A DNA stretch of 64,000 nucleotides from Thermoproteota archaeon (GTDB taxonomy: Archaea > Thermoproteota > Thermoprotei > Thermofilales > B9-G17): positions 515,168-579,167 of the forward strand of contig JAPDJW010000002.1 of assembly GCA_029258885.1 (NCBI GenBank). Reading direction: 5' to 3'. Made by a program: the position numbers and the translations under genes. Below are positions 20,832-55,667 of the stretch, in pieces; positions within the stretch are counted from its first letter, which is position 1; the number at the start of each line of letters is the position of its first letter. The notes beneath the pieces were generated by a model that saw nothing but the letters and a program-made list of their open reading frames with translations, searched no databases and was not told the DNA's origin.

Positions 20832-20832
20832 A

Positions 20833-24570: not shown

Positions 24571-24574
24571 AGCA

Positions 24575-34500: not shown

Positions 34501-34973
34501 GTAGCTTGGAAAGGATAGGCTCTACTAGTGTTCATTTAGACGGTAATCTCTCAATTCTCTTTTTTGAGAGTATTTCTGTAGCACACAATATAATATGTAT
34601 AGAGTGTCCAGAGAACTAGAAAGAACAATACTCTCAATTCTCTTTTTTGAGAGTATTTCTGTAGCCCAATTTTAAAGATACTTGAGGAAAAATATAATTT
34701 AAGATTTCTCTCAATTCTCTTTTTTGAGAGTATTTCTGTAGCTAAGCAATAGATTTGTAGCGAAAATAAACCAGCTTATAATTAAATCTCTCAATTCTCT
34801 TTTTTGAGAGTATTTCTGTAGCTGGCTGTGAACGGCAGGGTGGTTGAGCCTGAGTACTGGAACGCTCTCAATTCTCTTTTTTGAGAGTATTTCTGTAGCG
34901 TTTTTGTAGGAGTATAGGCGGTGAGGTTAAGGAGAAAGCTCTCAATTCTCTTTTTTGAGAGTATTTCTGTAGC
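31527..34973 (-). CRISPR. CRISPR array 1: 45 repeats of 35 nt, 44 spacers (39-50 nt)
   Basis: The + strand repeat is CTCTCAATTCTCTTTTTTGAGAGTATTTCTGTAGC (first copy 31527..31561, last 34939..34973). The reverse complement GCTACAGAAATACTCTCAAAAAAGAGAATTGAGAG ends in a handle-like ATTGAGAG. The AT-rich leader is on the right flank. The only degenerate copy (1-nt deletion, 31612..31645) is at the far left, so the array is read on the minus strand. Confidence 0.98.
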
Positions 34974-35372
34974 TGTTTTTGTTGTGTTTATATTTTGTCT
35001 CTTTTTGTATTTATGCGTTTCGGTGTTTTAGCAAAACTGCATTCTACGTTTAGCCCTATTTAAAGGGGTATATATACAAATATTTTTCAACTATATAAAA
35101 TCGATGGATAAAATATATAAGCTTGAATTTTTGGCAGCGGATCTTTTTCTCTTTTTAGAAATGATCTTATTGCTATAATTATGAAATTATTAATGTATGC
35201 TGGGGAATATGGTATATTATTTTTAATATTTTTATCTACTTATTAAAAATTTATTTTTGAAAATATTTTTGGAATGTTTTATCATAGTGATTTTTCATGA
35301 AAAGAGAAATAAATCATATATAAAGGGGGTCAATGATTATAAGCCGTAAAATTGCCAAATGTTCAATTTGGT
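34974..35372 (-). promoter_or_regulatory. CRISPR leader of array 1 (inverted duplicate of leader 2)
   Basis: AT-rich ~400 bp abutting the last repeat. Its reverse complement aligns by eye with 47501..47898, near-identical over the ~170 nt next to the repeats (including TTTGTATATATACCCCTTTAAATAGGGC) and over a distal ~75-nt block. Confidence 0.8.
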
Positions 35373-35406
35373 TAATGTTATATTTTTGTTTGCTGTTTTA
35401 TTGTTT

Positions 35407-36453
35407 ATGGAGTTTAGGGAGCTTGTTGGTAGGTTTAGGTGGCGTAGTTTCGAGGATTATTTGGGTGAGGAGGATTCTGTTCTTGCTGAGGATGTTAGGT
35501 TTTTCCGTAGGGTTAGGGGTGAGCTTAGGCGTTTTGTTGAGGGTTTGAGGGGTTTTAGGGATAGGCTTAGGCGTATCGATCTGGGTAGGATTGATGTTTT
35601 TAGGTCTCTCCTGTATGAGGGTCGTGTCTGTGGTGTTGATGGTACTATTGCTGTCTATCCTACTCCCATAGGCGTTAAGTGTAGGATTGGTGTTATTGCT
35701 GTTAACTATGCTGGCGGTAGGCTGGAGAAGGTTGTTTATGTTAGTGATGCAAACTTGATTGATGAGGAGTTGAGGAGGGTTGATGAGCTTCTCTCCTCCC
35801 TTGAGAGAGTTGTCCGTTTCTCCAGGCTCCTCTATAGGACTATTATGCTGTATGAGGAGAGGAGGATTGCCCTTGAGAGAGATGAGGATTGGAGGATTGT
35901 TCATGGACCATTGATTCCTCTCGAGTTTAGGCTTGGTAGGCTTGGTGTTGAGGGCGTTCTTGAAGCCTGTCTTGAGCTTGGCGCTAAGCTTATCGATGAT
36001 GGCCATGTGATTGGTGTTCTTTCATCCACTAATAGGCTTAGGATTGCGAGTTTAGGCTATATCCTTAATCCTGGTGAATACCTGTATGTGGGTGAGCTCG
36101 GCCGGATTATGGAGGCTGAGAAGAGGAGGCTTACGGCTGAGGAGGAGTCGCTTGTGGACGACTTCATATCCAAGTATGGCTCTAAAGTAGCCTTGGGTAT
36201 ATATAGGGTTGGGGCTAGAAGCTTCGTTTTTGAGGCTAGGAAAGATTTCTTCGATAATGCTGCACACCTTATAATTGCCGACTCACTGAATAATAGGTTT
36301 AAGGGTTTTCCCCTGCTCCTCGACTATGCGGATTCTATGTGTAGGACTCTGCTTAACAGCAGCGATTTTGAGAGGAAGATTGAGAACATGTATCTCATCG
36401 AGGAAGGGGAGGAAGGCCTATTATCCTTCGACGAGAGGAGGCTTAGAGGCTGA
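35407..36453 (+). CDS. NurA-like nuclease (divergent)
   Basis: 'RVCGVDGTIAVYP' (NurA 'aiDGs'), 'WRIVHGPLIP' (position of 'lmDGsL'), 'GFPLLLDYADSMC' (position of 'GYPfpL..AH'). I prefer the ATG at 35407 because the track start at 35359 lies inside the duplicated leader. Confidence 0.5.
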   Translation: MEFRELVGRFRWRSFEDYLGEEDSVLAEDVRFFRRVRGELRRFVEGLRGFRDRLRRIDLGRIDVFRSLLYEGRVCGVDGTIAVYPTPIGVKCRIGVIAVNYAGGRLEKVVYVSDANLIDEELRRVDELLSSLERVVRFSRLLYRTIMLYEERRIALERDEDWRIVHGPLIPLEFRLGRLGVEGVLEACLELGAKLIDDGHVIGVLSSTNRLRIASLGYILNPGEYLYVGELGRIMEAEKRRLTAEEESLVDDFISKYGSKVALGIYRVGARSFVFEARKDFFDNAAHLIIADSLNNRFKGFPLLLDYADSMCRTLLNSSDFERKIENMYLIEEGEEGLLSFDERRLRG

Positions 36454-36472: not shown

Positions 36473-37417
36473 CTAGGAGTTTTCAAGGGTATTCTTAGCC
36501 CTTATATTGATGGGTGCTTCTTGCTGTTTTTGAATGATGTGTAGCACTATTGCGGATGCTAGGAATAAGATACCTATGACGCCTGCATTTAATCCCGCCA
36601 TAGCGTATTCCAGTATGTGTGCATAGGATTTCTCATACCATCGGAGCTCTATGAATAGTTGAACTTTAATGTCTACGGGTTTTAGGTAGCTCCTATTCAT
36701 CGATATCAATACTTTTAGCGTCGGCTCATTCAGCTCCATTTTCTCTACAACGTAGTATAGGTTTGTATTGTATTTCTCCCTCGGTACGGTGAACGTGAAT
36801 ATGTATAGTGATTTTCCTGTTCCATTAAAGTATGATTTAAACGGTAAGCCTGCCCTCCATTTCTCGAAGTTTTGTTCATCTAAGATGTATAGGTTGAATT
36901 TCTGTCCGTTCATCTCCTCAGCCCTTCCCGAAATCACTATTGAGGTTTTAGGGGGAAATGTTAGCGGCGTTTTTGAGGCGTATGCTGAATTATTGTATAC
37001 TGTAAGCGTATCTGTAAGGAATTCTTCTGTAATGTTTTCTAGAGCCATGTTTACTATCGTCATCTTCAGGCCCCTACCTAATTCGGAGTAGTTTATGGGA
37101 AAGGAGAAGATGTATCCGGAGACGTTCTCGGCCTTCACATAGGAGTCTATGTAGAGGCTGAAGGATTCCCTAACATCAGGGTATTCGTCGAGTACGCCGA
37201 TGCAGCCGAATACAGTTAAATTTCTCCTATTAGCAAGGGGTAATTGTAAGGTATAGGATATGGTATCACTGTATGCCTCGTGGATAGTTATGGTGCTATC
37301 CTTTAAGATTACGGCCTTAGGGCTCCACTCCTCGTAGGTAAATGGAATTAAAGCCACTACTAAGCTTAAGAATATAAGGGTTAATCCTATTAATCCTATG
37401 AATTCGGTAAACTTCAC
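36473..37417 (-). CDS. Membrane-anchored protein (N- and C-terminal TM helices, large external domain)
   Basis: 314-aa ORF. N-terminal 'IGLIGLTLIFLSLVVALIPF', C-terminal 'GLNAGVIGILFLASAIVLHII', several N-x-S/T sequons. GTG start. Confidence 0.55.
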   Translation of the reverse strand: MKFTEFIGLIGLTLIFLSLVVALIPFTYEEWSPKAVILKDSTITIHEAYSDTISYTLQLPLANRRNLTVFGCIGVLDEYPDVRESFSLYIDSYVKAENVSGYIFSFPINYSELGRGLKMTIVNMALENITEEFLTDTLTVYNNSAYASKTPLTFPPKTSIVISGRAEEMNGQKFNLYILDEQNFEKWRAGLPFKSYFNGTGKSLYIFTFTVPREKYNTNLYYVVEKMELNEPTLKVLISMNRSYLKPVDIKVQLFIELRWYEKSYAHILEYAMAGLNAGVIGILFLASAIVLHIIQKQQEAPINIRAKNTLENS

Positions 37418-37604: not shown

Positions 37605-39203
37605 GTGTCTAGTAGGCCGATTGGCTATGTGGCTTTCGATACTAAGGTTGATACCCAGTATTCTAGCCTCTCCGCTATAAACGTGTTTATGGATAATATT
37701 GATAAGATCCATAGGGGCAAGTATGTCCGCATAGACTCTACTGAGGGTAGGAGGTTTGTTGGGCAGGTTGTAGCTGGCCCATTCTATATGCCTGAGGGGC
37801 TTAGCCCCAGCTCTCACGTTGCTCAAGCTTTTACGATTAGGGGTGAGAGGTTTAAGTCTCTTCCACCCTACTACGCCGTCTTCTACGTTGAGATACTTGG
37901 TGAGTGGGAGAAGGAGTTTAAGTCCACCTATACTAAGCCTAGGCCTAAGTCCCCCGTATACGAGATGGGTGCTCTCGAGATATCGGATATCCTCGGCCTA
38001 AGCAAGGGTGACATGGTTTTAGGCCATCATATCGGGTATAAGGGCGTTAAGATTAAGCTTCCATCAAGCCACATGGACGTTTTACCTAGGAACGTCGGCA
38101 TATTCGGAACCGTTGGCAGCGGGAAGACTAATACAGCACAGGTTCTCATAGAGGAGGCCGCGAGACACAACTGGAGTGTTATAGTGATAGATATTGAGGG
38201 CGAATACACCTACATGGACTATCCGAACGACGACCCCGAGATGTATGAAGTACTGAAGAGCATATACGGCATCGAGCCGTTTAAAATAGAGAATTTCCAC
38301 GTATTCGTCCCCGTAGGTAGGGATTCTACGCGTGGAAGCGAGGCAGTTAGATTCGGTATACCGTTCTTCCAGATAAACCCGTACGTGTTGGCCGAGATTA
38401 TCAGGGCTACCGAGCCACAGCAGAGGTATCTGAGCATAGCTATAGGTGAGCTTTTAAGCCTAAGGGAGGGAAGCGGAGCCGAGGAGGCTACGGAGTTCGA
38501 GGAGTTCGCCTTCGGAGGCTCCAAGGAGGTTGAGCCTATAACTCTCGAGGAGGTAATTAACCATATTGAAAGTAAGATTAGCTCTACTAGGGATAGGGGT
38601 GTCGTCTCCGCCCTAACCGCGCTATCGACGAAGCTTAGGAGGCTTGACCTTTACGGCGTTATTGATGAGGGCAAGCCTATAGACTTCAGCTCTATACTTA
38701 AGCCAGGCCACGTTTCGGTCCTAGATGTAAGCGATGTTGAAGATAACGTTAGGAATATATGTATAGCCTGGCTCCTCGACACAGTGTTTAACCTTAAGCT
38801 TAGGGATGTCGAGAGGAAGCTGCCTAAAATCATGATCGTAATTGAGGAGGCACACGCCTTCGTAAGTAAGGAGGTTAGGGATAAGATGGAGGCTACGATC
38901 GACCTGCTTAAGAGGATAGCTAGGAGGGGTAGGAAGAGGTGGATATCCCTCGTATTCATATCCCAGCAGCCCGGCCACCTCCCGCCGGAGATATTCGAGC
39001 TATGTAACACTAGAATTATACATCAGCTTAGAAGCGAGATGAATATTAAGGCTATTAGGGAGACCACCGGAGCATTAACGAGGGAGCTTGCCCGGAATAT
39101 AGTCAACCTATCGAAGGGTGAGGCTATAGTCACATCCCCCGTACTAAGGTATCCAGTACTATGTAAGATAAGGCCAGCCGCTACCAAGAGGTTTAAACAC
39201 TAG
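37605..39203 (+). CDS. herA: HerA-family (FtsK/HerA superfamily, DUF87) ATPase
   Basis: HAS-barrel-like N-terminus 'IGYVAFD...GKYVRIDSTEGRRFVGQVV', Walker A 'GIFGTVGSGKTNTAQ', 'VIVIDIEGEY', Walker B 'IMIVIEEAHAFV', 'LVFISQQPGHLPPEIFELCNTRIIHQLR'. Confidence 0.85.
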   Translation: MSSRPIGYVAFDTKVDTQYSSLSAINVFMDNIDKIHRGKYVRIDSTEGRRFVGQVVAGPFYMPEGLSPSSHVAQAFTIRGERFKSLPPYYAVFYVEILGEWEKEFKSTYTKPRPKSPVYEMGALEISDILGLSKGDMVLGHHIGYKGVKIKLPSSHMDVLPRNVGIFGTVGSGKTNTAQVLIEEAARHNWSVIVIDIEGEYTYMDYPNDDPEMYEVLKSIYGIEPFKIENFHVFVPVGRDSTRGSEAVRFGIPFFQINPYVLAEIIRATEPQQRYLSIAIGELLSLREGSGAEEATEFEEFAFGGSKEVEPITLEEVINHIESKISSTRDRGVVSALTALSTKLRRLDLYGVIDEGKPIDFSSILKPGHVSVLDVSDVEDNVRNICIAWLLDTVFNLKLRDVERKLPKIMIVIEEAHAFVSKEVRDKMEATIDLLKRIARRGRKRWISLVFISQQPGHLPPEIFELCNTRIIHQLRSEMNIKAIRETTGALTRELARNIVNLSKGEAIVTSPVLRYPVLCKIRPAATKRFKH

Positions 39204-39846
39204 ATTTAAGGAGGGATTTAACTAGCCTGTATGCTTCAGCTATATCCAGCTTGGAATCCCTACTCCTCAGCCTATTTATCATTCTCCTTACAAACCTCCT
39301 GTCCTCACTCCTTAAGTCCTCAAGCTTTAACATCTCCCTTAGAGCGGATATCATGAGTAGTTTCGCATACTTCACCTGCCCGGTGGTGGTTGCTTTGCTT
39401 GCTATAGCCAGCGATTTTTCGGCTTTACCGAATATAATCTTTCTCCAATCTTTAGCCTTCCTCTCCCTCACTTCATATAGTGCATATCCCTCAAAGACTA
39501 TAGCTCCCCTTAACCTAAGCTGCTTAGGTAGTTTCTGCCTCCATGGGGCTACGTATACGTTCTCAGATATTCTCCTTAAACCGCATTTATCTAGGTTTTC
39601 TCCGACAGCTACTATTACCCTATCTCCCTTAACGCTGCCGCTTTCTAGGGCTTTTAACCCGCATAGGGTTAGTGTAATGTATCCTCCATCCACATTGATG
39701 TAGCCCTTCTCTATCAGGCTGTTTAATGCGCTCGATAATCCGCTTACATCTTCATCTATCGACTTAGCCAGATTGGAAATGCTTATTTTACCCTTCCTCT
39801 TAACTATCTAAAGGATATTTAGTTCAACTATGCTAAGTGTATCCAC
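39193..39846 (-). pseudogene. wHTH protein gene interrupted by an in-frame TAG (39808..39810); paralog of 39847..40548
   Basis: The track ORF starts at GTG 39693. The same frame continues upstream as 'IVKRKGKISISNLAKSIDEDVSGLSSALNSLIEKGYIN', and beyond the TAG as 'MDTLSIVELNIL' (GTG 39846). Together these form a complete wHTH. Confidence 0.55.
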
Positions 39847-40548
39847 ATGTATAGTTTAGAGCAATGCAGGATTTTAGGTTTACTGGTAATGTTTAGAAAT
39901 ATCCACCTAGCGGACATATCATTCTACCTGGACGCTAGGATGGATGATATTCTCACCTACTGTAGAAGCCTGCGGGGCTACGGCTTCCTAAAGCTCCATG
40001 AGAATTCAGCATTGATTACCGAGGCCGGAATACGTGCATGCCTAGGGGATCTCGCATTCAGTGGACGGAGATGGTTTATTCTAGTGGTGGATCCATCTGG
40101 TGCGCCGAGGGAGATGGATTTCGTGAACGTTAGGGGACAAGCATACGTAACTCCCTTTACCCTTCAGATGCTCGAGCTAATTAAGCTGCTCTATCGGGAG
40201 ATCTTCGTAGTCTCATCAAAGGCCTGCAGTATATGGATTAGGATGGCTGAGGATAGGATGCCGTACCGCAGAATTATAGACGTCATGAGGACTATAGAGG
40301 ATATTCAAGATAAACTATCTAGGCTGAGCTATCCCCGTTCGAGCAGATACGTTAAAGCTATCATATCCAGGCTTAACAGGTGTAGGAGGGAGCTTGAGAA
40401 GGCCGCTAGGATAGCTAAGCTTGATTTCAGGCTAGTAGGGCTAAATAGATCCTTCTCGAGGGATCCGCTAAGCTATTCTAGGGAGCTGTACGGGGTAGCC
40501 TTATCGTGTAGGGATAAGGTTCTACGTAGTGCTGAGGGTCTTAGATAG
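39847..40548 (+). CDS. wHTH domain protein, putative regulator (paralog of the gene on the opposite strand)
   Basis: 'LEQCRILGLLVMFRNIHLADISFYLDARMDDILTYCRSLRGYGFLKL' wHTH. The downstream region aligns by eye with the 39193..39846 product ('QAYVTP' vs 'NVYVAP'). Confidence 0.55.
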   Translation: MYSLEQCRILGLLVMFRNIHLADISFYLDARMDDILTYCRSLRGYGFLKLHENSALITEAGIRACLGDLAFSGRRWFILVVDPSGAPREMDFVNVRGQAYVTPFTLQMLELIKLLYREIFVVSSKACSIWIRMAEDRMPYRRIIDVMRTIEDIQDKLSRLSYPRSSRYVKAIISRLNRCRRELEKAARIAKLDFRLVGLNRSFSRDPLSYSRELYGVALSCRDKVLRSAEGLR

Positions 40549-40819
40549 CTATATCCTCCTCCTCATGTATCTCGTAGTTGTGTATTATCGTGAGGACTTT
40601 AGCTTCGTCTCGTCCACATATTGGTATGGCTATAACCCTAGCTTTACTTGGACCTATTATCCTCCTTATTTCGCTCATTATCCCCTTTATTTCGGCGGCT
40701 GAAGCCTCGAATAGGAATGCGCTGTACTGTATCCTATCTCCGCCCATATCCTTAAGGTATCTCCTAACCTCATTCCTAATGCTGTCATCTGATATGTCGT
40801 AGACTATAATGTACTTCAA
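40541..40819 (-). CDS. cas2: Cas2
   Basis: 'MKYIIVYDISDDSIRNEVRRYLKDMGGDRIQYSAFLFE' is a typical Cas2 N-terminal ferredoxin-fold signature. 92 aa. Confidence 0.85.
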   Translation of the reverse strand: MKYIIVYDISDDSIRNEVRRYLKDMGGDRIQYSAFLFEASAAEIKGIMSEIRRIIGPSKARVIAIPICGRDEAKVLTIIHNYEIHEEEDIAI

Positions 40820-40870
40820 GCTTCACCTAATACTTATATCCCTTTAAATCCTTATTATTTTTGAGGATAA

Positions 40871-41335
40871 ATGACGCGTATAATTAAGATGTTTCTCGAG
40901 GATAACGTGTTGTCGGTTTTAATAGATTTAGTTGCTCTGGATGAAACGTTTGGAGAACGCTCACGCGAAGTACTGGGTAAAGTTGTGTCTAGAGTGGAGG
41001 CCATCCTTCTAGCTCATGGAGGCAGAAACCTAGAGAGGGAGGAAGGTCTGACTTACGTTAAGGTTAAATGTAAAATTAATCCGAGGAGCTACGGCTACGT
41101 CGAGAGGAGCCTCACATCCCTAGAGGATGAAGTTAGGAGGAAGCTGGGGCTGGTTGAACACCTTGTTGCAGTATTTAGGAGTACCTCCAAGCTGTCTCCG
41201 TATCTCGTGAGCTTCTATGAGGTTTCCCCCGCGCTCCCTAGGAGCCCGGAGGGCTATAGAGTTACTTCACGGATAGCCAGAATCCTATCGAGGGAGAGGA
41301 GAGTTATCTGGGCGAGTACGGCCTCGGAGTCCTAG
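40871..41335 (+). CDS. Hypothetical ORF; its last ~40 codons appear to be the start of the Argonaute N-domain
   Basis: 154-aa ORF. From about 'LSPYLVSFYEVSPALPRSPEGYRV' it resembles the first strands of long pAgo N-domains. An in-frame GTG is present at 41207. Confidence 0.4.
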   Translation: MTRIIKMFLEDNVLSVLIDLVALDETFGERSREVLGKVVSRVEAILLAHGGRNLEREEGLTYVKVKCKINPRSYGYVERSLTSLEDEVRRKLGLVEHLVAVFRSTSKLSPYLVSFYEVSPALPRSPEGYRVTSRIARILSRERRVIWASTASES

Positions 41336-42120
41336 GCTATCTCGTTAAGCCGGGAGTTTCTATTGAGGATAGCTTTAAGGTATACGTTGGAGATAGGGAG
41401 TACACCTTAAATAAGCTGCGCGATAGGCGTCTCAACTTTAACCTTAGAGGCGATAGGGAGTTCTTCAAAAAGATCGTTGATAGGGGTATTAGAAGGAAGT
41501 TCCGTGAGCTAGGGTTTAGGGTTCGCGGATACATAGTGGTCTATAGCCAGCCCATATACTCATATGAGTATGTGGATGTTTGGCCAGCATGTGAGTTCCA
41601 GACTATAATTGATTCGGATGGCACGCTATCCCTCGCCTTATCGCCGAGACATATCATCGAGTCGATGAGGAGCATAATGGAGGACTACGAGAGCTTAGAG
41701 GAGCTGGTTAAAAGGAGGCGGGAGCTAGTGGGATGCAGTGTTAGAAGTATCGTTGATGGACAAGTATACAGGATAGTTTCGGTGCTCGATAAGAGGGCGA
41801 GGGATTCATTTGAGGAGCTCAACGGTTCAAGCCTATGCGAGTTCTATAGGGACTACAATATCGACCCAATGGAGCCAGCTATAGTTATCGAGAGGTATGG
41901 TTTCAGGCTCCTCCACGCTCCCTCACTTCTAAGGAGGATATATAGTCCAGCTGAACTGGCAGGTTTAGGCGTAGCTAGGGAGGTTATGAGAGCCATAAAG
42001 CTCAACCTGCTAAGGTGGAGCGATACCTCACGCAACATTGTTAGAACGTTATCTCCCATAGAGATAGATGGAATCGAGATAAGGTTCTCCGATCAGCCCG
42101 AGGTTCTCGAGGTGGCGTAG
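41260..42120 (+). CDS. Argonaute N-terminal half (N-L1-PAZ-L2), frame-disrupted near 41263; no canonical start before GTG 41536
   Basis: The frame is open from 41260. L1-like 'VDVWPACEFQTIIDSDGTLSLALSPRHIIESMRSIMEDY'. PAZ-like 'QVYRIVSVLDKRARDSFEELNGSSLCEFYRDYNIDPMEPAIVIERYGFRLLHAPSLLRRIYSPAEL'. It resembles PfAgo-type long pAgos as I remember that sequence. Confidence 0.6.
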   Translation, partial: SYFTDSQNPIEGEESYLGEYGLGVLGYLVKPGVSIEDSFKVYVGDREYTLNKLRDRRLNFNLRGDREFFKKIVDRGIRRKFRELGFRVRGYIVVYSQPIYSYEYVDVWPACEFQTIIDSDGTLSLALSPRHIIESMRSIMEDYESLEELVKRRRELVGCSVRSIVDGQVYRIVSVLDKRARDSFEELNGSSLCEFYRDYNIDPMEPAIVIERYGFRLLHAPSLLRRIYSPAELAGLGVAREVMRAIKLNLLRWSDTSRNIVRTLSPIEIDGIEIRFSDQPEVLEVA

Positions 42121-42121
42121 C

Positions 42122-43069
42122 ATCTACAGGGAGTTCTGTGATTGGGGCTACATCCTCGCTCCACGTAATGGGGAGATTATAGCTAAGGGACAGATTGAAG
42201 CGGGCAGATTTAAGCCCAAGGATAGGATAGTTCTCTCGGGCTCCGGCTCAATAAATGTCGATGCTGTGGCGAATATCGTCGGTGCGGGAGGCTCAATTTT
42301 GGTTGAGAAGGGATCTATACAGCTAGACTACTTCAACTCTATGTTCTCACGTAACCTGCTGGCTCAGCTCGCGTCTGTGGAGAATTCTGAGGTTAGGAGC
42401 AGAGTTGCCTCCTCTATATTGGAGGCTGCTGCATATAATAAGATTAGGGTTCTGGAGATACTGGAGGTTCCCGAGGACGTTAGGAGCAGGGTTGTCGGGG
42501 AGATTAAGGGGCTTATATCGATGCTTAAAGGAACTGTTCTAAGCAGATTGATGGGCGTTGAAGCTAGAATAACCAAGCTCTACTTCGAGGCTCTAAGATA
42601 CGTAATTCCCGTGGAGTATGGTTTTAAGGCTAGAACGCGTAGACCCCCTAAGGACTACTTTAGCGCTGCACTAAGCTATGGGAACATGCTCCTCTACAGA
42701 CACGTACTTAAGGAAATACTTAGGTTCGGCCTGGATCCTAGGCTAAGCTACCTCCATACGCCCTATAGGCATAGGCCATCGCTAGCGCTCGATATAGCCG
42801 AGGAGTTTAGGCAGGCCGTGGTTGATCTAGCAGTTATTCCGCTCTACACGTCGAGGTCTATGAGCATTAAGGGGGACTTCCAGGTTTTCGGCTCATCCAT
42901 ATACCTCAATAAGCGTGGAAACTTTAAGGTTAGGAGGAGCTTCCACCACAGGATGAACCTTAGAGTTAAGGGGAGGAGCCTCGCCGACGCAGTAAGAGGT
43001 CAGATTAGGAAGCTGCTGGAGTTCATCCACGGCGATAGGAGCGAATATACTCCGTTCAGAATTCAATAG
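42122..43069 (+). CDS. cas1: Cas1 (canonical catalytic motifs); conserved N-terminus lacks a start codon (track start GTG 42266)
   Basis: 'RIVLSGSGSINVDAVANIVGAGGSILV', 'GVEARITKLYFEAL', 'GLDPRLSYLHTPYRHRPSLALDIAEEFRQAVVD' (E, H, D/E motifs). Confidence 0.85.
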   Translation: MYREFCDWGYILAPRNGEIIAKGQIEAGRFKPKDRIVLSGSGSINVDAVANIVGAGGSILVEKGSIQLDYFNSMFSRNLLAQLASVENSEVRSRVASSILEAAAYNKIRVLEILEVPEDVRSRVVGEIKGLISMLKGTVLSRLMGVEARITKLYFEALRYVIPVEYGFKARTRRPPKDYFSAALSYGNMLLYRHVLKEILRFGLDPRLSYLHTPYRHRPSLALDIAEEFRQAVVDLAVIPLYTSRSMSIKGDFQVFGSSIYLNKRGNFKVRRSFHHRMNLRVKGRSLADAVRGQIRKLLEFIHGDRSEYTPFRIQ

Positions 43070-43313
43070 TATCTATTATAATGATATTTTCATAGCATCT
43101 CCTACATGGAAATATTATATCGACCCTCCCAGCCCCCTCCGCAACGATTCTCCTAATGTCGTTAATCATCCTCTCGGCGTTTTTCTCGTCCAGCTCTACC
43201 TCATAAACGCTGTACTCCCTGAAAACGCCGCCGTAGTCCTTAAGCCTATTCCTTAATCTATCCCTAAGCCTATCATATCCAACTGGGATATCGAAGACGA
43301 CTATTATCTTCAA
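43056..43313 (-). CDS. cas2: Cas2 (second copy)
   Basis: 'MKIIVVFDIPVGYDRLRDRLRNRLKDYGGVFREYSVYEVEL'. 4-nt overlap with the upstream cas1-like gene. Confidence 0.8.
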   Translation of the reverse strand: MKIIVVFDIPVGYDRLRDRLRNRLKDYGGVFREYSVYEVELDEKNAERMINDIRRIVAEGAGRVDIIFPCRRCYENIIIIDTIEF

Positions 43314-44179
43314 TAAACCGCCTCCTTAAACGGTATAAAGCCTCCAGCCGGATTCATCAGATAGGATGCAAGCCCCTTCGCAGCGGCCTTTATGTGTTTA
43401 AATAGAGGCATCCTCCTACCATCAGTATCCTCAACGTTCCTCTCAACGATATTCCTAAGATACTTCAGGAGAAGCCTCCTCCCCTCATAGCTACCTAAGT
43501 CGATGGATGAAAGGATGTCGGAACCAACTTCAACGAGGCAACGCCAGACAGTCGATGGCTCAAATACTAGAAGGAAATCCCTTGTAAGCGATCTCCTATT
43601 TACGAAGCCTATGTGTGGGGTTAAGCCAGCCCTAACCACGGCGTCCAGACATTCTGCTTCAATAAAATAGCTGAGATACTGGATAACTGACTCGATTAGG
43701 CTAAGTTTTACTCCAAGATATCTTGATAAAAGCTTAAGCGCATTAACCCTAACTTCCTCCAGCTCCCCCTCGGCCCTGAATGGAAGGTTAAGTCTCGAGA
43801 AAAAGGCGCAGAGGTTATGGTTGAATGCCTCCCTAATGCATGAAGCTATCTCCTCAGCTCTCGAGGTAGAGTACTGGGTTAATATCAGCTCAACGTGCTT
43901 CCTTTGAAGCATCCCCGTAAACCACGCTATCCTATCCTTAAATACCAGAGCTATGGTTACGTTATCCTCTGAAGCCAGCGATAGAGCCGATGTACTTATC
44001 CTCCTACATCCATCCAATACTAGGAGGTAGGCAGTTAAGGAGGCTATCTCACGTCTACGATCTCCAGCCTCAACTACGAAGCGCCTACTCCTACGGCCTA
44101 AATTAAAGCCATTGTACGCTATCCAGTAGCTCCTCCTCAACCAATCCCCTTGATCATAGTATATAGTTTCCTTATCCAC
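43310..44179 (-). CDS. cas1: Cas1-like protein, divergent (conserved His replaced)
   Basis: 'GLTPHIGFVNRRSLTRDFLLVFEPSTV' aligns with the Cas1 'GldP.lGflH....sLa.DlmEefR' block but has Asn in place of His. 289 aa. Confidence 0.65.
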   Translation of the reverse strand: MDKETIYYDQGDWLRRSYWIAYNGFNLGRRSRRFVVEAGDRRREIASLTAYLLVLDGCRRISTSALSLASEDNVTIALVFKDRIAWFTGMLQRKHVELILTQYSTSRAEEIASCIREAFNHNLCAFFSRLNLPFRAEGELEEVRVNALKLLSRYLGVKLSLIESVIQYLSYFIEAECLDAVVRAGLTPHIGFVNRRSLTRDFLLVFEPSTVWRCLVEVGSDILSSIDLGSYEGRRLLLKYLRNIVERNVEDTDGRRMPLFKHIKAAAKGLASYLMNPAGGFIPFKEAVY

Positions 44180-44967
44180 GGCCTAGGCTCAACCCTACCC
44201 TCCCTAATAATGATCACGCCCCGCTCCTCAAGCTCTTTAATTCTCTCGTACCCTATAATATCCTTTAAATCGGCCAGTGATATGTGTGGGAAAATCCTAT
44301 CTATGAGGGAGAGGAATTCCTCCTTTACAGTTATCGGCAGCAGGGGGAGTGCCACAACCTCCCTGAAGGACTCATGTATATAATATACCTTATCCGCTCC
44401 CATAACCATTGAGATAATGGTGGCGAATGAGGTTTCAGGCTTAAAGCCAGCAGTAGCATTAACGTAGACCCTGTATCCAGCATTCTTCTTACTCTTAACG
44501 ACCCCAGCAATTTTATCTATTAAATTGGATAAAGCCTCATCGAAGAGCGAGGCGCCGAGCCCGAAGCCCCTAACCCTAACGGGCTCATTAACGTAGTACC
44601 CCCTAGACTTAAGGTGTTCATAAACTATCCTTCCACATAGATATCCGGTGCCGGTATCAGTGGTATATAGCCCTATCTCAATATCCTCAATCCTCGATGG
44701 ACCGTAGAGGTCGGTGAACCTGTAGAATGCGTTAAGCTCAGCACTAGCACTATAGGGATCAGAGTTCACATACTCCAGAAGCCTATCGAAAACCTTGGAA
44801 CCCCTATGGGCGGAAGCCTCAGCCTTCTTCTGATCATCATGGTCGGGTGGAAGCCTACCCCACGAACTTATTTTAAGCTCCTCAGCCTCATCCTTAAAAG
44901 TCCTTGCAAAGTTTAGGAGGATTGCAGTTCCAACCGTAACCACGTGAAATACCTTCATAGATACCAC
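44137..44967 (-). CDS. CARF-domain protein of the APE2256 type with probable C-terminal wHTH
   Basis: 'FHVVTVGTAILLNFA', 'SAELNAFY', 'YVNATAGFKPETS' (CARF signature). C-terminal 'ISLADLKDIIGYERIKELEERGVIIIREGRV'. Confidence 0.6.
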   Translation of the reverse strand: MVSMKVFHVVTVGTAILLNFARTFKDEAEELKISSWGRLPPDHDDQKKAEASAHRGSKVFDRLLEYVNSDPYSASAELNAFYRFTDLYGPSRIEDIEIGLYTTDTGTGYLCGRIVYEHLKSRGYYVNEPVRVRGFGLGASLFDEALSNLIDKIAGVVKSKKNAGYRVYVNATAGFKPETSFATIISMVMGADKVYYIHESFREVVALPLLPITVKEEFLSLIDRIFPHISLADLKDIIGYERIKELEERGVIIIREGRVEPRPWIRKLYTMIKGIG

Positions 44968-44997
44968 AAAAATATAACAGCATAACGAGTATATAAA

Positions 44998-45711
44998 ATG
45001 ATGCTACGTGGATACAGTCGCCTAGCAGCCTCAGGCATAAATAGAATGGTTAGAGTAACGGATGTCACGTTATACCTCTTCTGTCCGCGGAAACTCTACC
45101 TAGTGGGCTTCCTAGGGATAAGAGGCAGGCCGACTAGGGAGAGCATTATGGGTAAATTGGCCCACTACGCATACCTAAGGGCAAGCATCCTAAAGATAAC
45201 CGAGAATAGGGTGGAGGAGGAGAGCGTGAATATAGCTAGAGAGGCAGTCGAGAAGAAGCTTACGGAGGGGCTAAGCGATACGGAGGTCAAGGAGATAGTT
45301 GTAAAAACCTTAAGGTTTAGGGCTGAAAACCCGATTACGGGTGGGGTTGAGGTCGAGAAGTACGTTGAATCGGTAAGGCTGGGGTTAAACGGACAGATAG
45401 ACCTAATGGAGGAACATACGCCAGTGGAGGTAAAGTACAAGTCCAGAGCTGAATACAGGGATCTAATACAGCTAACACTCTACACACTACTACTCGAGGA
45501 CGTCTACGGGTGGGATATAGATTACGGCTACATCGATCTACTTAAGGCTTCAAGAAGGTTAAGAATTGAAGTAAATAATAGGCTTAGAGGTGATGCGCTT
45601 AAGCTTAGGGATAAAGTGCAGGAGACAATACTAATGGGGACGTATCCGCCAGCTAGGGATAAGTGTAGGGGATGCGACCTAAAGATAGAGTGTAGATCCC
45701 TCTTCCACTAG
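44998..45711 (+). CDS. cas4: Cas4 (RecB-like nuclease with Fe-S cysteines)
   Basis: N-terminal Cys in 'LYLFCPRKLYL', 'IDLMEEHTPVEVKYK' (D..EVK), 'QLTLYTLLLE' (QxxxY), C-terminal 'CRGCDLKIEC'. Confidence 0.85.
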   Translation: MMLRGYSRLAASGINRMVRVTDVTLYLFCPRKLYLVGFLGIRGRPTRESIMGKLAHYAYLRASILKITENRVEEESVNIAREAVEKKLTEGLSDTEVKEIVVKTLRFRAENPITGGVEVEKYVESVRLGLNGQIDLMEEHTPVEVKYKSRAEYRDLIQLTLYTLLLEDVYGWDIDYGYIDLLKASRRLRIEVNNRLRGDALKLRDKVQETILMGTYPPARDKCRGCDLKIECRSLFH

Positions 45712-46910
45712 AGGAACCAGAGCCTAGAATAATACTCCTCCGACGGCGATACACCCAACCTAAGGAAGCTACATATCCTATGGGCATACAAAGTCGTTAT
45801 TGGAAGCCTAGTTGAAGCAAACGCTGAAGCCCAGTGTAGCTCGCTCAACCAGTACACATCCCTGGCAATATCATACATACTAACCTCCCAGTTAGATGCC
45901 TCAGCCAGCTCAACAACAACCGGCCTAACCAATCCAGACACATCAATATAGGGGTGCTCCGGGAAGCCTGAGGTAACCACAAGATACCTATATTTATCAA
46001 GCACATAGAACGTACCTTTCTCCGGATTAGTAACTCTTCTCCCAACCCTCCTGGTAACCCTAGGCACAGCCCTCTTCTTAACCTCAACAAAAACCCAGTT
46101 AGATGCAACGCCCTCATCAACAGCCGAGTCCATAACATCCCTAACCGCTTCAAGCTCAACATCAAAGGTAGAGCCATCCCTATGAACAACTATTAAATTA
46201 ACCCTACCAGCATGCCTATGAATAACGTCGAGAGCGAGCGTAAGCACATTCCTAATCGAATAGATAACCTCAACCCCGGGATTAAACTCGAAGCGCCAGT
46301 CGAAGAATATGCCCCCATCAAACACGAAGACTGTTACAACAACGTTGTTACCGACAGTATCCAAGCCAATATACGCATCACCTAAAAGCCTATCCCCCAA
46401 AACCCAAGGTATTCCCCCAGCCTTACAGTAGATAGACAGAGCTAAATTAAAGAGAACATAGGATTTACCCGCAAGCCTTCTAATAGTAGAGTATGTAACC
46501 ATTTGACTAGGAATCCCACGTAGAGCTAAAGCCTGCTTAATAGGAACATAGGGATCCTCCTCAAAACCCGGATAGTTTTCATCGGGAACAGCTACGATAG
46601 CTACATCAACATCCTCAATTGAATCGATGACATCAGCGTACCTATCATATGATTCAAAGAAGTACTCAACGTCCCCAACCCTACAGCCAAACCATCCAGT
46701 AAGACCTCCAAAACCCCTAACACCATAGATAAGGTTATCCATGAGGACACGAGAGTAGCTATACATTCCACGAGGACAGATAAAACAGAGCCTAACAGCA
46801 TCAGGACCGGAGAAAGGACCGAAGCCGAGTTTAAACCCCTCATAGGGGAAAATAGAGGTACCACTCCCAAACCTTAAAACAGGCCTAGAGAAGACGCCTC
46901 CCCTAACCAT
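45708..46910 (-). CDS. Argonaute MID-PIWI half (400 aa) with apparent DEDH catalytic tetrad
   Basis: MID pocket pattern 'PYVPIKQ...GIPSQMV...SIYCKAGGIPWVL'. PIWI 'AYIGLDTV' (D), 'GVEVIYSIRNVL' (E), 'LIVVHRDGS' (D), 'LPITTLYAHRICSF' (H). C-terminal 'RLWFL'. Confidence 0.8.
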   Translation of the reverse strand: MVRGGVFSRPVLRFGSGTSIFPYEGFKLGFGPFSGPDAVRLCFICPRGMYSYSRVLMDNLIYGVRGFGGLTGWFGCRVGDVEYFFESYDRYADVIDSIEDVDVAIVAVPDENYPGFEEDPYVPIKQALALRGIPSQMVTYSTIRRLAGKSYVLFNLALSIYCKAGGIPWVLGDRLLGDAYIGLDTVGNNVVVTVFVFDGGIFFDWRFEFNPGVEVIYSIRNVLTLALDVIHRHAGRVNLIVVHRDGSTFDVELEAVRDVMDSAVDEGVASNWVFVEVKKRAVPRVTRRVGRRVTNPEKGTFYVLDKYRYLVVTSGFPEHPYIDVSGLVRPVVVELAEASNWEVSMYDIARDVYWLSELHWASAFASTRLPITTLYAHRICSFLRLGVSPSEEYYSRLWFL

Positions 46911-46931
46911 AAGATAATAAAGCTAACCAAA

Positions 46932-46939
46932 TATATAAA
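46932..46939 (-). promoter_or_regulatory. TATA box candidate for the MID-PIWI gene (leaderless-type spacing)
   Basis: Minus strand reads CTTTATATAT. It is centred about 25 nt upstream of the ATG at 46910. Confidence 0.4.
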
Positions 46940-46975
46940 GCCTAAGACACCGCTTAATCGATACAACGATGTATC

Positions 46976-47386
46976 CTATAAGCTGCCTCTAGGAAAGAGG
47001 GGACCCCCAGACACAAGCTTCAACACGTATTTAAAGTACTCCCTAAAGTGATCCGCCAAATAACTCCTCTCAGAGGACTTAAGCTCAGCAAGCTGTTCCT
47101 CTATAAACACATCATCGTCATCGGGCTCCATTCTGAAATACTTCGTAAGAAACTTGGCAGTAACCAGTATGTAGAAGTCGCCGAGACTTAAAATAGCGTA
47201 GGCTGGCGGAATACCCGAACCATAAATCCTCACATGATACTTCCACGCCTCAAGAGCCTCCTGAGCCATCGGATACACATCACCACTCTCATACCCACAC
47301 CTCGGACAAACAACACCCTCCCTAAACACAGCGTAGCGAGTACCACAAGACGGACACCTATAATTATACGAAGAATGATACGTCAC
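46976..47386 (-). CDS. Zn-ribbon protein, upstream neighbour of the MID-PIWI gene
   Basis: 'CPSCGTRYAVFREGVVCPRCG' (CxxC...CxxC) plus a ~95-aa uncharacterised domain. A minus-strand TTTTATATATGGG lies ~35 nt upstream of the ATG. Confidence 0.6.
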   Translation of the reverse strand: MTYHSSYNYRCPSCGTRYAVFREGVVCPRCGYESGDVYPMAQEALEAWKYHVRIYGSGIPPAYAILSLGDFYILVTAKFLTKYFRMEPDDDDVFIEEQLAELKSSERSYLADHFREYFKYVLKLVSGGPLFPRGSL

Positions 47387-47500
47387 TATAATCCCTCAGA
47401 CTACTAAACCAACACCCATATATAAAATCCAGCATCCTTCACATCAAACACCAAAACAACGCAGAAATAGCATCAACCATAGATAAACACAAGCCATAAC

Positions 47501-47898
47501 ACCAAATTGTACTTTTGGCAATTTTACGGCTTATAGTCATTGACCCCCTTTATATACGGTTTACTTCTCTTTTTGCGAAAAACTTCTATGATATTTTTAT
47601 CCAAAAAATATTTGAAAAATAATATTTTAATATTTAAATCAATATTCTTAATACTATTCAATAATTATAGTGAATATAATTAAAGATTATTTAACTCAAT
47701 GATAAAATTATTTTTGAAAAGTGAATAGGGCTTGCTGCCAAAAATTCGATCTTATATATTTTATCCGTCAAAAATATATAACTAAAAAATTTTTGTATAT
47801 ATACCCCTTTAAATAGGGCTAAACGTAGAATGCAGTTTTGCTAAAACACCAAAACACATAAATACAAAAAGAGACAAAAAATAAACACAGCCAAAACA
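47501..47898 (+). promoter_or_regulatory. CRISPR leader of array 2 (inverted duplicate of leader 1); TATA-like TGTATATATA at 47794..47803
   Basis: AT-rich ~400 bp ending at the first repeat. It aligns with the reverse complement of 34974..35372. Confidence 0.8.
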
Positions 47899-49085
47899 GC
47901 TACAATAAAACTCTCAAAAAAGAGAATTGAGAGGCCTTGTGATGTGGAAGTATAGTCGCTTGATGGCATCTGCTCTGCTACAATAAAACTCTCAAAAAAG
48001 AGAATTGAGAGGCAATATTGGCTGTGTCGTTGCCTATAAGATACAATGGGTATATCGCTACAATAAAACTCTCAAAAAAGAGAATTGAGAGAGGCAGTCA
48101 TATCGTGTTGCCTTCTCCATCCTCTTGGCAAGTATCGCTACAATAAAACTCTCAAAAAAGAGAATTGAGAGATTTTTCCACAATATGGTGAATTCACTTG
48201 AGTGTTCTGTCTTAGCTACAATAAAACTCTCAAAAAAGAGAATTGAGAGATATACTCGTCAATTTTCGTTAACGCCTCTGTTAAGTCCTCGCTACAATAA
48301 AACTCTCAAAAAAGAGAATTGAGAGATATAATCTAGTTTCATCTACCTCGCTTTCAAAGAGACCAACGCTACAGAAATACTCTCAAAAAAGAGAATTGAG
48401 AGTAGCATTTTGAGTAATTTAACGATTTTATCCCACTCTTCTGCTACAGAAATACTCTCAAAAAAGAGAATTGAGAGTCTTCATCAGTTACCTTGAATGG
48501 CAAGTTCTCTATTCTTACTTGCTACAGAAATACTCTCAAAAAAGAGAATTGAGAGAGACATAGTCTTTTACCACAGTAATGTAGCCGTCAATAATGCTAC
48601 AGAAATACTCTCAAAAAAGAGAATTGAGAGGCATGCCTAGTCGTAACCGGCGGCATACTAATTCTCATAAGCGCTACAGAAATACTCTCAAAAAAGAGAA
48701 TTGAGAGTATAGAAGCGTTTACTTTTCTTTTCTCCTCATTAAGCTTATTGCTACAGAAATACTCTCAAAAAAGAGAATTGAGAGGATAGGGATTTTAGGT
48801 TATTCTAATTCTTTTTTCAATTTCGCTACAGAAATACTCTCAAAAAAGAGAATTGAGAGGAATTATGCTCAGTTTTTAGGTATTGCTTAATGACTTTTAT
48901 GCTACAGAAATACTCTCAAAAAAGAGAATTGAGAGAGCATGTTAGTGTACATCTCTACAACATCCTTTAATGTCATGCTACAGAAATACTCTCAAAAAAG
49001 AGAATTGAGAGATACTGATGTAGAATTCTTTCGAGGTTCTTTTAAATACTGCTACAATCCTAATAAATGACCTAAGGAGGATTGG
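47899..49085 (+). CRISPR. CRISPR array 2: 15 full repeats + 1 degenerate terminal repeat, 15 spacers (39-45 nt)
   Basis: Repeats 1-6 are GCTACAATAAAACTCTCAAAAAAGAGAATTGAGAG. Repeats 7-15 are GCTACAGAAATACTCTCAAAAAAGAGAATTGAGAG (last full copy 48977..49011). The degenerate copy is GCTACAATCCTAATAAATGACCTAAGGAGGATTGG at 49051..49085. The leader is on the left. Confidence 0.97.
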
Positions 49086-49960: not shown

Positions 49961-51445
49961 TTAAGCTATGTTCCTGTAGAATATTTCGATGAACTTATCG
50001 GCTGTCCTTATTAATCTATCCACGTTCCTCTTCACGGGTCTTCCAAGCCCATGCTCTAGGTAGAGTAGGTTTCTATGTATAGCGTTTCTATGTAGCTCCC
50101 TTATAAGCTTAAGCCCTACGATGTTTTCATCGAGTGCGAGTAGTAGGGTTAAGGCTTCAAATAGCGATAGCTTCATTTCTCCATCCTCTTCCTTAAGCTT
50201 AAGTGGATCTACTACATGTGTTTTCAGGAACCTGTTTATTTCCCTCGCTTTTTCCTCAAACCTCTCTGCGTGTTCCTCCTTGACTCTATACTTCGAGGTA
50301 TCTATTTTATGTTTGCGATAGAGTAATATCTGTACTATTAATTCAACTATCCTGTAGGCTAATATCAGCTTTAACGCTGGATCCTCGTAGAAGTCAAGCC
50401 TCCTCCTAAAGTCCTGGACGAAAGCCTTCAACCCATCCACGCCGCTTTTTTCAGCTATCCTATCGACGGCCTCCGACACCTTATTTACCCCGCTTAAGTC
50501 GGCTTTTATCCTCCTAGATATATCCTTAATATGTGTTAATACCGTGAATAGCTTCTCCTTTAAGGGATGATGTAGTTTAAATTGGCGCTCTACCTCCTCT
50601 AGAAATTCTAAGGCGTTTTCAGCAAGCGTATCAGCGCCCTCGTAGCTGAATAGAAGCCATTTCCTGATAGCCTCCTTAGAGTTCCTTAAAGCCTCCCTCA
50701 AAATTACTTCGCTAGTCCCTCTAGCTATTCTATCCATATCCTCCACGTTGAAGTTATTTAACGCCATTAGATAGTCCTCCTGGATTCTCTCATTTATAAA
50801 CTGTAGGAACATCGGTATCCTCTCTATCCTCCGATAGGGTAGCTCGTATCCCCTCATTATTTCCATGAGCTCTTCTCTCTCCAGCTTAAGTCTATGTGCC
50901 AGCTCTTCCATGAGCTCGTTATTCCTCGGATGCACAGCGAGGTATATTAAGTCTATTCTCCATCCTCTAGCAAGCATTACGTTGTTAGCCAGCTGGCTTA
51001 GGTAGGTCGCCATAGACTTTGTTCCACCCGTAACATCAAACAGTATCCTTACGTTTTCTCTGCCTGATGATACTAGCTCTATGAAGCTTAAGGCATTGTT
51101 CCGAATACCCTCGTAGTTGGTGATACCATCTATAGGTGCTATAACTATTCCTTTCTTCCCTCTAACTATCTTATTCCTAATTTCATATGCTATCTTCTCC
51201 GTATCCTTAGTTGGCAGTAATAGAGCATGTTCATAGTCAAATATAAGTAGGGTATAGGCTATGGGCCAAGGCGTTTTCCCTACGGTTGCAACGACTGCAT
51301 TATACTTAACACGTAGATCAGATGGTATCTCAGCCTTCTCAGCTGCAAGGTAGAGAAGCTTAATGTATTTTTCCTTAGCCTCCTCTTCCCTACCATCTCT
51401 TAACAGTTTTACAAACTCCTCCAAAAGTGAAAGCTCCCGCTCCAT
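49961..51445 (-). CDS. csm6: Csm6-family CARF-HEPN ribonuclease (TTHB144-like architecture with N-terminal helical extension)
   Basis: CARF 'VVATVGKTPWPIAYTL' and 'LFDVTGGTKSMATYL'. HEPN 'HRNLLYLEHGLG' (R-x6-H). Confidence 0.7.
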   Translation of the reverse strand: MERELSLLEEFVKLLRDGREEEAKEKYIKLLYLAAEKAEIPSDLRVKYNAVVATVGKTPWPIAYTLLIFDYEHALLLPTKDTEKIAYEIRNKIVRGKKGIVIAPIDGITNYEGIRNNALSFIELVSSGRENVRILFDVTGGTKSMATYLSQLANNVMLARGWRIDLIYLAVHPRNNELMEELAHRLKLEREELMEIMRGYELPYRRIERIPMFLQFINERIQEDYLMALNNFNVEDMDRIARGTSEVILREALRNSKEAIRKWLLFSYEGADTLAENALEFLEEVERQFKLHHPLKEKLFTVLTHIKDISRRIKADLSGVNKVSEAVDRIAEKSGVDGLKAFVQDFRRRLDFYEDPALKLILAYRIVELIVQILLYRKHKIDTSKYRVKEEHAERFEEKAREINRFLKTHVVDPLKLKEEDGEMKLSLFEALTLLLALDENIVGLKLIRELHRNAIHRNLLYLEHGLGRPVKRNVDRLIRTADKFIEIFYRNIA

Positions 51446-55501: not shown

Positions 55502-55667
55502 AAATTCCTGTTTTTAAACAGGAATTTATGATTAAGATGATGACGGTTAGAAAGATAACAGCAATTACGTTGATTAGAAGGAACAGAAAATGCGGCCTTA
55601 AGCTGTAAATAATATAAGGCTACTTAATATTTATCTTTATGGTGGAGTATATTTATGTGTGATTTTT

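Follow-up and report, generated by a model that had tools for sequence, protein, structure and literature searches.

Why would an archaeal genome encode an Argonaute protein in two halves, on opposite strands, with the genes for CRISPR spacer adaptation threaded between them? The question is raised by a stretch of 64,000 nucleotides (nt), here called the window, from a Thermoproteota archaeon of the B9-G17 lineage (GCA_029258885.1, contig JAPDJW010000002.1, positions 515,168 to 579,167 of the forward strand), in which a gene for an Argonaute N-terminal subunit (40871..42120, + strand) and a gene for a MID-PIWI subunit (45708..46910, − strand) lie 3.6 kb apart. A first-pass annotation, made from the sequence without database searches, had interpreted these genes as the two pieces of one prokaryotic Argonaute (pAgo), possibly able to slice, within the adaptation module of a type III CRISPR locus. 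The comparisons described here point to a naturally two-subunit, long-type, slicer-type pAgo that appears to be functionally tied to CRISPR adaptation, a reading to which we assign a probability of roughly 0.7. Gene orders were compared over ~20 loci, and the contigs or loci of relatives are designated by L numbers.

The MID-PIWI subunit

The MID-PIWI gene encodes a protein of 400 amino acids (aa) that matched the Piwi family of Pfam (E = 4e-16) and the pAgo model of PADLOC (E = 2e-66). It contains all of the motifs that had been quoted from it, including PYVPIKQ (aa 120), IPSQMV (aa 133), and YCKAGG (aa 161) in the MID pocket, IGLDT (aa 181), GVEVIYS (aa 212), HRDG (aa 243), and LYAH (aa 374) at the PIWI catalytic positions, and the C-terminal LWFL (aa 397). 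As predicted from these residues, the protein has a DEDH slicer tetrad (D184, E214, D245, and H377) and a canonical YKQK pocket (Y121, K125, Q136, and K163) for a 5'-phosphorylated guide. The best match among solved structures by sequence was CbAgo (6qzk, residues 441 to 734, E = 1e-21), and pairwise alignment placed D184, D245, and H377 on its catalytic positions 541, 611, and 727. E214 is assigned to the tetrad because it is conserved in the family and is lost together with the other tetrad residues.

An AF2 model of the protein, built with 26 family members in the alignment, had a predicted local distance difference test score (pLDDT) of 87.5 and a predicted template modeling score (pTM) of 0.86. 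In Foldseek comparisons, the template modeling score of this model was 0.80 with CpAgo, 0.76 with CbAgo, 0.75 with AfAgo, and 0.70 to 0.77 with short pAgos. Among the best PDB matches by sequence and by fold, those of highest identity are thus the long-A proteins CbAgo and CpAgo, which is a nearest-neighbor comparison only; no MpAgo structure was among the PDB sequence matches at an E value of ≤1. A scan of genome contigs that used the MID-PIWI sequence by itself as the query found nothing but distant long pAgos from bacteria. The first-pass annotation had given the gene a TATA/ATG of its own; TTTATATA is located 22 to 29 nt ahead of the ATG, and a Zn-ribbon open reading frame (ORF) lies upstream at 46976..47386.

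The N-terminal subunit and the position of the break

If intact, the N-subunit gene would encode ~416 aa; in the window it is divided into an ORF of 154 aa (40871..41335) and a second frame (41260..42120). The first-pass annotation had taken the second frame as the entire N-terminal piece. That frame is open and contains the strings quoted from it, but the gene starts at 40871 rather than at 41260, and the proposed sum of 305 plus 400 aa is actually ~416 plus 400 aa. Relatives of the MID-PIWI protein have immediately upstream a gene for a protein of 418 to 421 aa without Pfam matches, and in tblastn searches these proteins aligned to both window frames (residues 1 to 144 to 40871..41305 and residues 157 to 388 to 41350..42018). 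After frame correction, the translation can be aligned over 100% of its length, at 95% identity, to P0032, an intact protein of 416 aa from a Thermoprotei metagenome-assembled genome (MAG; contig L020).

Single-sequence searches with the N half gave no match in Pfam or in PDB, so that of the two pieces only the MID-PIWI protein was recognized by Pfam; the homology of the N half appeared only through the family profile and a structure model. In PDB, the profile matched TtAgo (residues 85 to 227, E = 1.5e-5), PfAgo (residues 32 to 168, E = 2e-5), and CbAgo (residues 138 to 319, E = 9e-5), with weak, nonsignificant matches to isolated PIWI-clade PAZ domains (E = 0.06 to 0.1). The AF2 model of P0032, from 28 family sequences, had a pLDDT of 91 and a pTM of 0.71, and its top Foldseek matches were TtAgo, CpAgo, CbAgo, Siwi, MILI, HrAgo1, and hAgo2 (E = 1e-14 to 1e-10 over 320 to 360 columns). 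A PAZ-sized domain of ~90 aa (aa ~269 to 357) lies between L1 and L2 in the predicted structure. Both subunits are therefore Argonaute-like in their predicted folds, the N half matching N-L1-PAZ-L2. According to the model, the N subunit opens with a family-specific domain of ~100 aa and continues through N, L1, and PAZ into L2, most of which it contains, and searches of the Pfam and PADLOC libraries found no effector domain in it. The family-specific domain (aa 1 to 100, window 40871..41170) is modeled as beta-beta-alpha-beta-beta-alpha; it has no counterpart in single-chain pAgos, no Pfam match, and no significant PDB profile match.

That the two genes together make up one long pAgo, as originally proposed, is indicated by their alignment to single-chain proteins. 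The PADLOC model PprPIWI (666 positions), whose name was not found in the papers searched, aligns at positions 5 to 288 to aa 99 to 406 of the N half and at positions 296 to 659 to aa 6 to 393 of the MID-PIWI protein. Similarly, the hidden Markov model of the N half aligns to residues ~6 to 360 of single-chain pAgo ORFs of 693 to 789 aa (loci L034 to L048). This colinearity places the break within L2, the remainder of which is predicted from the sequence alignments to reside on the MID-PIWI protein.

The split is a property of the family

Searches for the MID-PIWI protein yielded 31 clusters at 34 to 58% identity, hosted by Thermoprotei, Thermofilum, and Nezhaarchaeales MAGs, in which the complete proteins are all 382 to 408 aa long. 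An exhaustive HMMER search for the N half yielded 30 representatives, nearly all of ~350 to 465 aa with a few short fragments, and none of the 30 is fused to a MID-PIWI domain; the only long match (710 aa) is marginal, with an E value of 5.5e-4 over a short stretch. Two halves on opposite strands, 3.6 kb apart and with mobile-looking adaptation genes between them, could also be the pseudogene fragments of a single-chain Argonaute that a cas cassette had recently disrupted through its insertion or inversion. This explanation is very improbable and already contradicted, since both halves are complete, separate ORFs in ~30 clusters each and are never fused, the halves are under purifying selection, and a relative with 48% PIWI identity has the order seen in the window. 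The same conservation of order, together with the lack of meaningful inverted repeats at the boundaries, led us to reject a recent site-specific inversion as the source of the opposite-strand arrangement. Even less credible is an assembly artifact that separated a really contiguous gene, for which no support was found: the order recurs in independent contigs obtained from other samples and with other assemblers (L001, L020/L021, L030, L101, and L102). The separate halves of ~400 aa and the selection acting on them show the split to be ancestral and maintained, a conserved property of the family and not an accident of this locus.

The YKQK pocket is invariant in all 26 aligned family members, and the tetrad is DEDH or DEDD in 14 of the 26 and degenerate in the rest. 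Two unclassified Argonautes from the 2018 census of pAgos (Ryazansky 2018, PMC6299218), those of T. uzoniensis and V. moutnovskia, were considered as relatives and rejected, as they are 504 and 611 aa long and do not have the YK motif. A gene of ~525 to 570 aa without a Pfam match directly follows and overlaps the PIWI gene in adjacent-type loci (L004, 11194..12771; L041, 66..1775; L023, 8255..8821), and among the distant members with a downstream gene of 525 aa (L004 and L041) degenerate tetrads occur, at least in L004. In the adjacent-type loci, it is possible that this 525- to 570-aa gene encodes an effector, as in long-B systems.

A frameshift in the N-subunit gene of this strain

The division of the N-subunit gene in the window results from a 1-nt deletion in a G run (41310..41312, + strand), where the window has GGG and intact alleles have GGGG. 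In a 6,602-nt alignment of window positions 40825..47425 with L020 (98.6% identity), the missing G is the sole indel. Close relatives (96 to 98% nucleotide identity), including L020 and a third strain, L030, carry the intact allele. The frameshifted products of 154 and 194 aa are recorded from the NCBI, ENA, and Logan assemblies, which argues against an assembler artifact, with the reservation that these assemblies may share reads; L001, another ENA contig, matches the window at 100% identity. Among the three close strains, the ratio of nonsynonymous to synonymous substitution rates (dN/dS) of the N half is 0.09 to 0.20, indicating that the gene was functional until very recently. Programmed frameshifting at the G run was judged unlikely, given that a slippery heptamer is lacking and that the P site would hold a Trp codon.

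The complete heterodimer is probably not made in this strain, and the frameshift makes the slicing competence proposed for it doubtful despite the intact MID-PIWI gene and DEDH tetrad. We consider it likely, on balance, that the system is decaying in this strain and that its MID-PIWI protein has no activity or else works on its own as an Argonaute without PAZ, the mode of action long assumed for stand-alone AfAgo. The deletion in all three assemblies and a downstream frame that has no canonical start codon before 41536 both fit such decay, and there is a precedent in the disrupted AfAgo-N gene of A. fulgidus DSM4304 (PMC10954474). Set against it are the intact state of the MID-PIWI gene and all of its neighbors, the low dN/dS that makes the lesion very recent, and the possibility of a homopolymer read error carried through assemblies that may share data.

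Conserved association with CRISPR adaptation genes

The two Argonaute genes occur in three recurrent orders, of which the opposite-strand order of the window is one. In type A (L002/L003, L004/L023, L028, L029, and L031), cas2a (−) is followed by N (+) and PIWI (+), which share a 4-nt stop/start overlap. In type B (L024, L103/L104, L105, and L106, and seen in part in L022 and L025), N (+) and cas1 (+) are followed by cas2b (−) and cas1' (−) and then by PIWI (+), flanked, where present, by cas2a (−) ahead of N and cas4 (−) behind PIWI. Type C (the window, L001, L020/L021, L030, and L101/L102) has the cas4/PIWI pair inverted and a CARF gene in addition. The DEDH tetrad is kept in all type B and type C loci examined. 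The interleaved orders were found in independent contigs down to 41 to 48% PIWI identity, and L101/L102 share the type C order at just 48% identity to the window. The recurrence of both the split and the interleaving in relatives supports the original description of the arrangement.

Several further features of these loci are shared. In types B and C the N-half gene runs up to or into cas1, PIWI and cas4 are repeatedly convergent with overlapping 3' ends, and CRISPR arrays directly flank the module in seven relatives (L002, L004, L022, L024, L103, L105, and L106). Families of HerA, NurA-like (~350 to 364 aa), p166, and p233 proteins recur with it. Together these loci define a conserved, CRISPR-array-flanked module of cas2a, N subunit-cas1, cas2b-cas1', MID-PIWI, and cas4, with HerA, NurA-like, and CARF genes. 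Pairwise identities across six loci correlated between PIWI and the N half (r = 0.61) and between PIWI and cas1 (r = 0.71), which is suggestive at most because the 15 pairs are not independent.

The genes between the halves are those that had been named in the first-pass annotation, and the Pfam and NCBIfam matches agree with it. The first gene, cas1 (42092..43069, + strand; TIGR00287, E = 3e-48), overlaps or abuts the 3' end of the N-subunit gene. It is followed by cas2b (43056..43313, − strand; Pfam CRISPR_Cas2, E = 2e-13) and by cas1' (43310..44179, − strand), a full-length, divergent Cas1 paralogue with weak Cas1 matches over both domains. The best PDB match of Cas1' was the casposase 6opm (E = 0.002), and it was also aligned to AfCas1; its catalytic His appears to be lost, as it reads GFVN where GFLH is conserved. 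A normal cas1 and cas2b accompany it in every case, and Cas1' could serve as a structural partner in a Cas1/Cas1' heterodimer. A ring nuclease-like CARF protein of the Cas_APE2256 family (44137..44967, − strand) matched Pfam (E = 8e-37) and NF040951 (E = 2e-31, under the cutoff of that model). The last gene, cas4 (44998..45711, + strand; TIGR00372, E = 2e-23), is convergent with the MID-PIWI gene, their 3' ends overlapping by 4 nt, and convergent cas4/PIWI pairs also occur in L101, L105, L029, and L032.

Outside the halves, a second Cas2 gene, cas2a (40541..40819, − strand; Pfam CRISPR_Cas2, E = 2e-17), diverges from the N-subunit gene and holds the same position in L002, L004, L029, L030, L101, L105, and L106. 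This position is kept even when cas1 is several kilobases off (L004) or unseen on the contig (L002). In L029, cas2a is apparently in two fragments.

The cas1 frame is open from 42083 and contains no ATG, GTG, or TTG before 42266 in the window and in L020; in L030 the first canonical start is later still, a TTG ~33 nt downstream. The 60 N-terminal codons are conserved all the same (dN/dS of ~0.2). An ATC at 42122 directly follows the TAG stop of the N half (42118 to 42120), with GAGGTGG at 42109 to 42115 ahead of it, which suggests that this ATC is the likely cas1 start, either as a noncanonical start codon or through termination-reinitiation coupled to the N half. A fusion of the N half to Cas1 by a +1 frameshift was dropped as a candidate, as cas1 of L024 has an ordinary ATG.

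Functional coupling or coinheritance

The functional coupling to adaptation put forward in the first-pass annotation is backed only indirectly, by conserved synteny and overlapping ORFs. The main rival explanation is a self-contained innate defense pAgo that was inherited together with adaptation genes in a defense island, with no mechanistic link between them. Defense genes generally cluster, the adjacent-type loci (L002, L004, L028, L029, and L031) keep the halves together without an intervening cas1, and PIWI identities correlate poorly with those of cas1' (r = 0.17) and cas2b (r = 0.39), all of which would fit coinheritance. It is harder to reconcile with interleaving that has been kept over deep divergence in two different orders, with an N-half gene that overlaps or abuts cas1 in all interleaved loci, with the recurrent 3' overlap of PIWI and cas4, with a dedicated second cas2 beside the N half even in adjacent-type loci, and with CRISPR arrays that abut the module. 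On these grounds, we regard coinheritance as unlikely and favor a two-subunit pAgo that is tied to adaptation.

Some observations weigh against that preference. Synteny by itself cannot tell functional coupling from coinheritance in a defense island, and some members have adjacent halves and a cas1 that lies at a distance of several kilobases (L004) or does not appear on the contig (L002). Slicing is not universal, as nearly half of the family has a degenerate tetrad, and E214 falls one column off E577 of CbAgo in the pairwise alignment. In the window genome itself, the N-subunit gene is broken.

Relation to known Argonaute systems

The closest described parallel to the split is AfAgo/AfAgo-N (fAfAgo), a split long-B pAgo that forms a heterodimer (Manakova et al. 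2024, PMC10954474). As in that system, the family of the window has one gene for an N-terminal lobe protein and one for a MID-PIWI protein, the N gene lies immediately upstream in the adjacent-type relatives, and a small indel breaks the N gene in one strain. In contrast to AfAgo-type proteins, in which PIWI is catalytically dead, the family member in the window has DEDH; whereas AfAgo-N has no PAZ, the N subunit has a modeled PAZ-sized domain of ~90 aa as well as an extra domain of ~100 aa. AfAgo-type systems are associated with a downstream effector, whereas the genes of the window are embedded among cas1, cas2, and cas4, and the nearest solved relatives of the window protein are the long-A proteins CbAgo and CpAgo.

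The MpAgo-like pAgos (group 5) are CRISPR-associated long-A proteins (Ryazansky 2018, PMC6299218; for MpAgo, Kaya 2016) and, as in the window, lie inside type III CRISPR loci beside cas1 and cas2. They are bacterial and single-chain, with a MID-OH pocket and 5'-OH RNA guides, whereas the family described here is archaeal and split and has the canonical YKQK 5'-phosphate pocket. Long-A pAgos have also been reported to be coencoded, and to cooperate, with the Cas4-family nuclease ACE1 (PMC12094033). Both kinds of system pair a pAgo having an active-type tetrad with a Cas4-family nuclease, activity in the window being read from sequence. In the ACE1 systems, the pAgos are cyanobacterial and single-chain and a dedicated ACE1 gene lies outside CRISPR loci, whereas the Cas4 of the window scores as a CRISPR Cas4 (TIGR00372) and is grouped with cas1 and cas2.

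Short pAgos (SPARTA, SPARSA, SPARDA, and SiAgo-Aga1) follow a similar heterodimer logic of MID-PIWI plus N lobe and have a similar MID-PIWI fold. Unlike the window protein, with DEDH and a YK pocket, they are catalytically dead, have HK or RK pockets, and act by abortive infection, and their PAZ-less APAZ partners are fused to effectors, whereas the partner protein of the window has no effector domain. Long-A pAgos are defined as single polypeptides, whereas every family member found has two genes. The family was absent from the supplement of the 2018 pAgo census for the genera checked. It thus lacks defining features of each of the split long-B, short, and MpAgo-like groups; split pAgos and CRISPR-associated pAgos are each already known kinds, and what appears to be new is their combination. 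Searches of the openly accessible literature found no account of such an arrangement, as the first-pass annotation had suggested.

To our knowledge, the split Argonautes reported until now, which belong to the long-B and short clades, are PAZ-less or PAZ-reduced sensors that are catalytically dead and set off effectors, and the only CRISPR-embedded Argonautes described are those of the MpAgo group, which are single-chain and bacterial. The present small archaeal family joins a split architecture and a predicted PAZ-bearing N subunit to an intact slicer site, and its genes are interwoven with a duplicated set of cas1 and cas2 next to CRISPR arrays, in archaea of hyperthermophile type. It makes two matters testable, namely, whether Argonaute and CRISPR immunity exchange substrates and where the prespacers of type III systems come from. 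Judging from its genes, it may also offer a thermostable, two-piece programmable nuclease scaffold.

A possible route from guide-directed cleavage to spacer acquisition

Products of DNA-end processing are used both in the loading of guides onto long-A pAgos and in naive spacer acquisition. If cooperation between pAgo and adaptation exists, sharing of substrates would be its favored form. The N subunit and the MID-PIWI protein would assemble as a heterodimer equal to a full-length slicer, as AfAgo/AfAgo-N and short pAgo/APAZ pairs suggest by analogy. End-processing enzymes (HerA/NurA-like and Cas4) may then produce small 5'-phosphorylated DNAs for loading into the pAgo, whose guide-directed cleavage of invader DNA would yield fragments and ends, and these could enter Cas1-Cas2 as prespacers. 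The outcome would be a DNA-level, priming-like route for a type III host.

A stronger form of this proposal is that the pAgo is a working part of the adaptation machinery, physically associated with Cas1, Cas1', and Cas2, and that it turns guide-directed cuts into prespacers. Such an association would account for the duplicated cas1/cas2 genes and for the N-half-cas1 operon. If true, it would provide type III systems, which lack a Cas3-type DNA shredder, with an Argonaute-driven counterpart to primed adaptation; we hold it to be doubtful.

Neighboring genes and CRISPR arrays

The surroundings of the module bear out its original placement in an archaeal type III locus. An effector module of that type, with an HD domain-containing Cas10 and RAMP proteins (18760..27126), and Csx1 (29418..30776) precede CRISPR array 1 (31527..34975), which has ~45 repeats with the unit CTCTCAATTCTCTTTTTTGAGAGTATTTCTGTAGC. 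Array 2 (47887..49011) has repeats of the same family in the opposite orientation, and the two arrays, inverted relative to each other, bracket the entire block from HerA to PIWI. In array 2, the six units closest to the Zn-ribbon/PIWI side are of the variant GCTACAATAAAACTCTC..., and the outer units are of the variant GCTACAGAAATACTCTC..., identical to the repeat of array 1. Downstream of the module, genes for two Csm6-type HEPN proteins (49961..51445 and 55659..57035, the second with a CARF domain) enclose a gene pair for an ATP-binding cassette (ABC) transporter (51492..55087).

Between array 1 and cas2a lie a NurA-like gene (35359..36453, + strand; 364-aa product), a 314-aa ORF (36473..37417, − strand) with no match across Pfam, NCBIfam, and PADLOC, and HerA (37605..39203, + strand), which matched Pfam and PADLOC. 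These are followed by p166 (39193..39693, − strand) and p233 (39847..40548, + strand; N terminus resembling a winged helix), families that both recur beside the module in relatives. Homologs of the NurA-like, p166, and p233 proteins adjoin the module in L101, L103, L105, and L106, and HerA, p166, and p233 are again beside it in L101, L105, and L106. The NurA-like protein of the window has 50% identity to the products of HerA-adjacent genes of L103 and L106. On the other side of the module, the Zn-ribbon protein gene (46976..47386, − strand) shares a strand with the MID-PIWI gene, upstream of which it lies, has weak Zn-ribbon matches in Pfam, and is conserved 100% in L020.

Divergence between the window (40825..47425) and its sister L020 is mosaic, amounting to 7.3% over the 5' third of the N-half gene and to 6.2% over cas2b, against 0.1 to 0.7% in cas1', the CARF gene, cas4, PIWI, and the Zn-ribbon gene. 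This uneven distribution suggests recombination between strains within the module.

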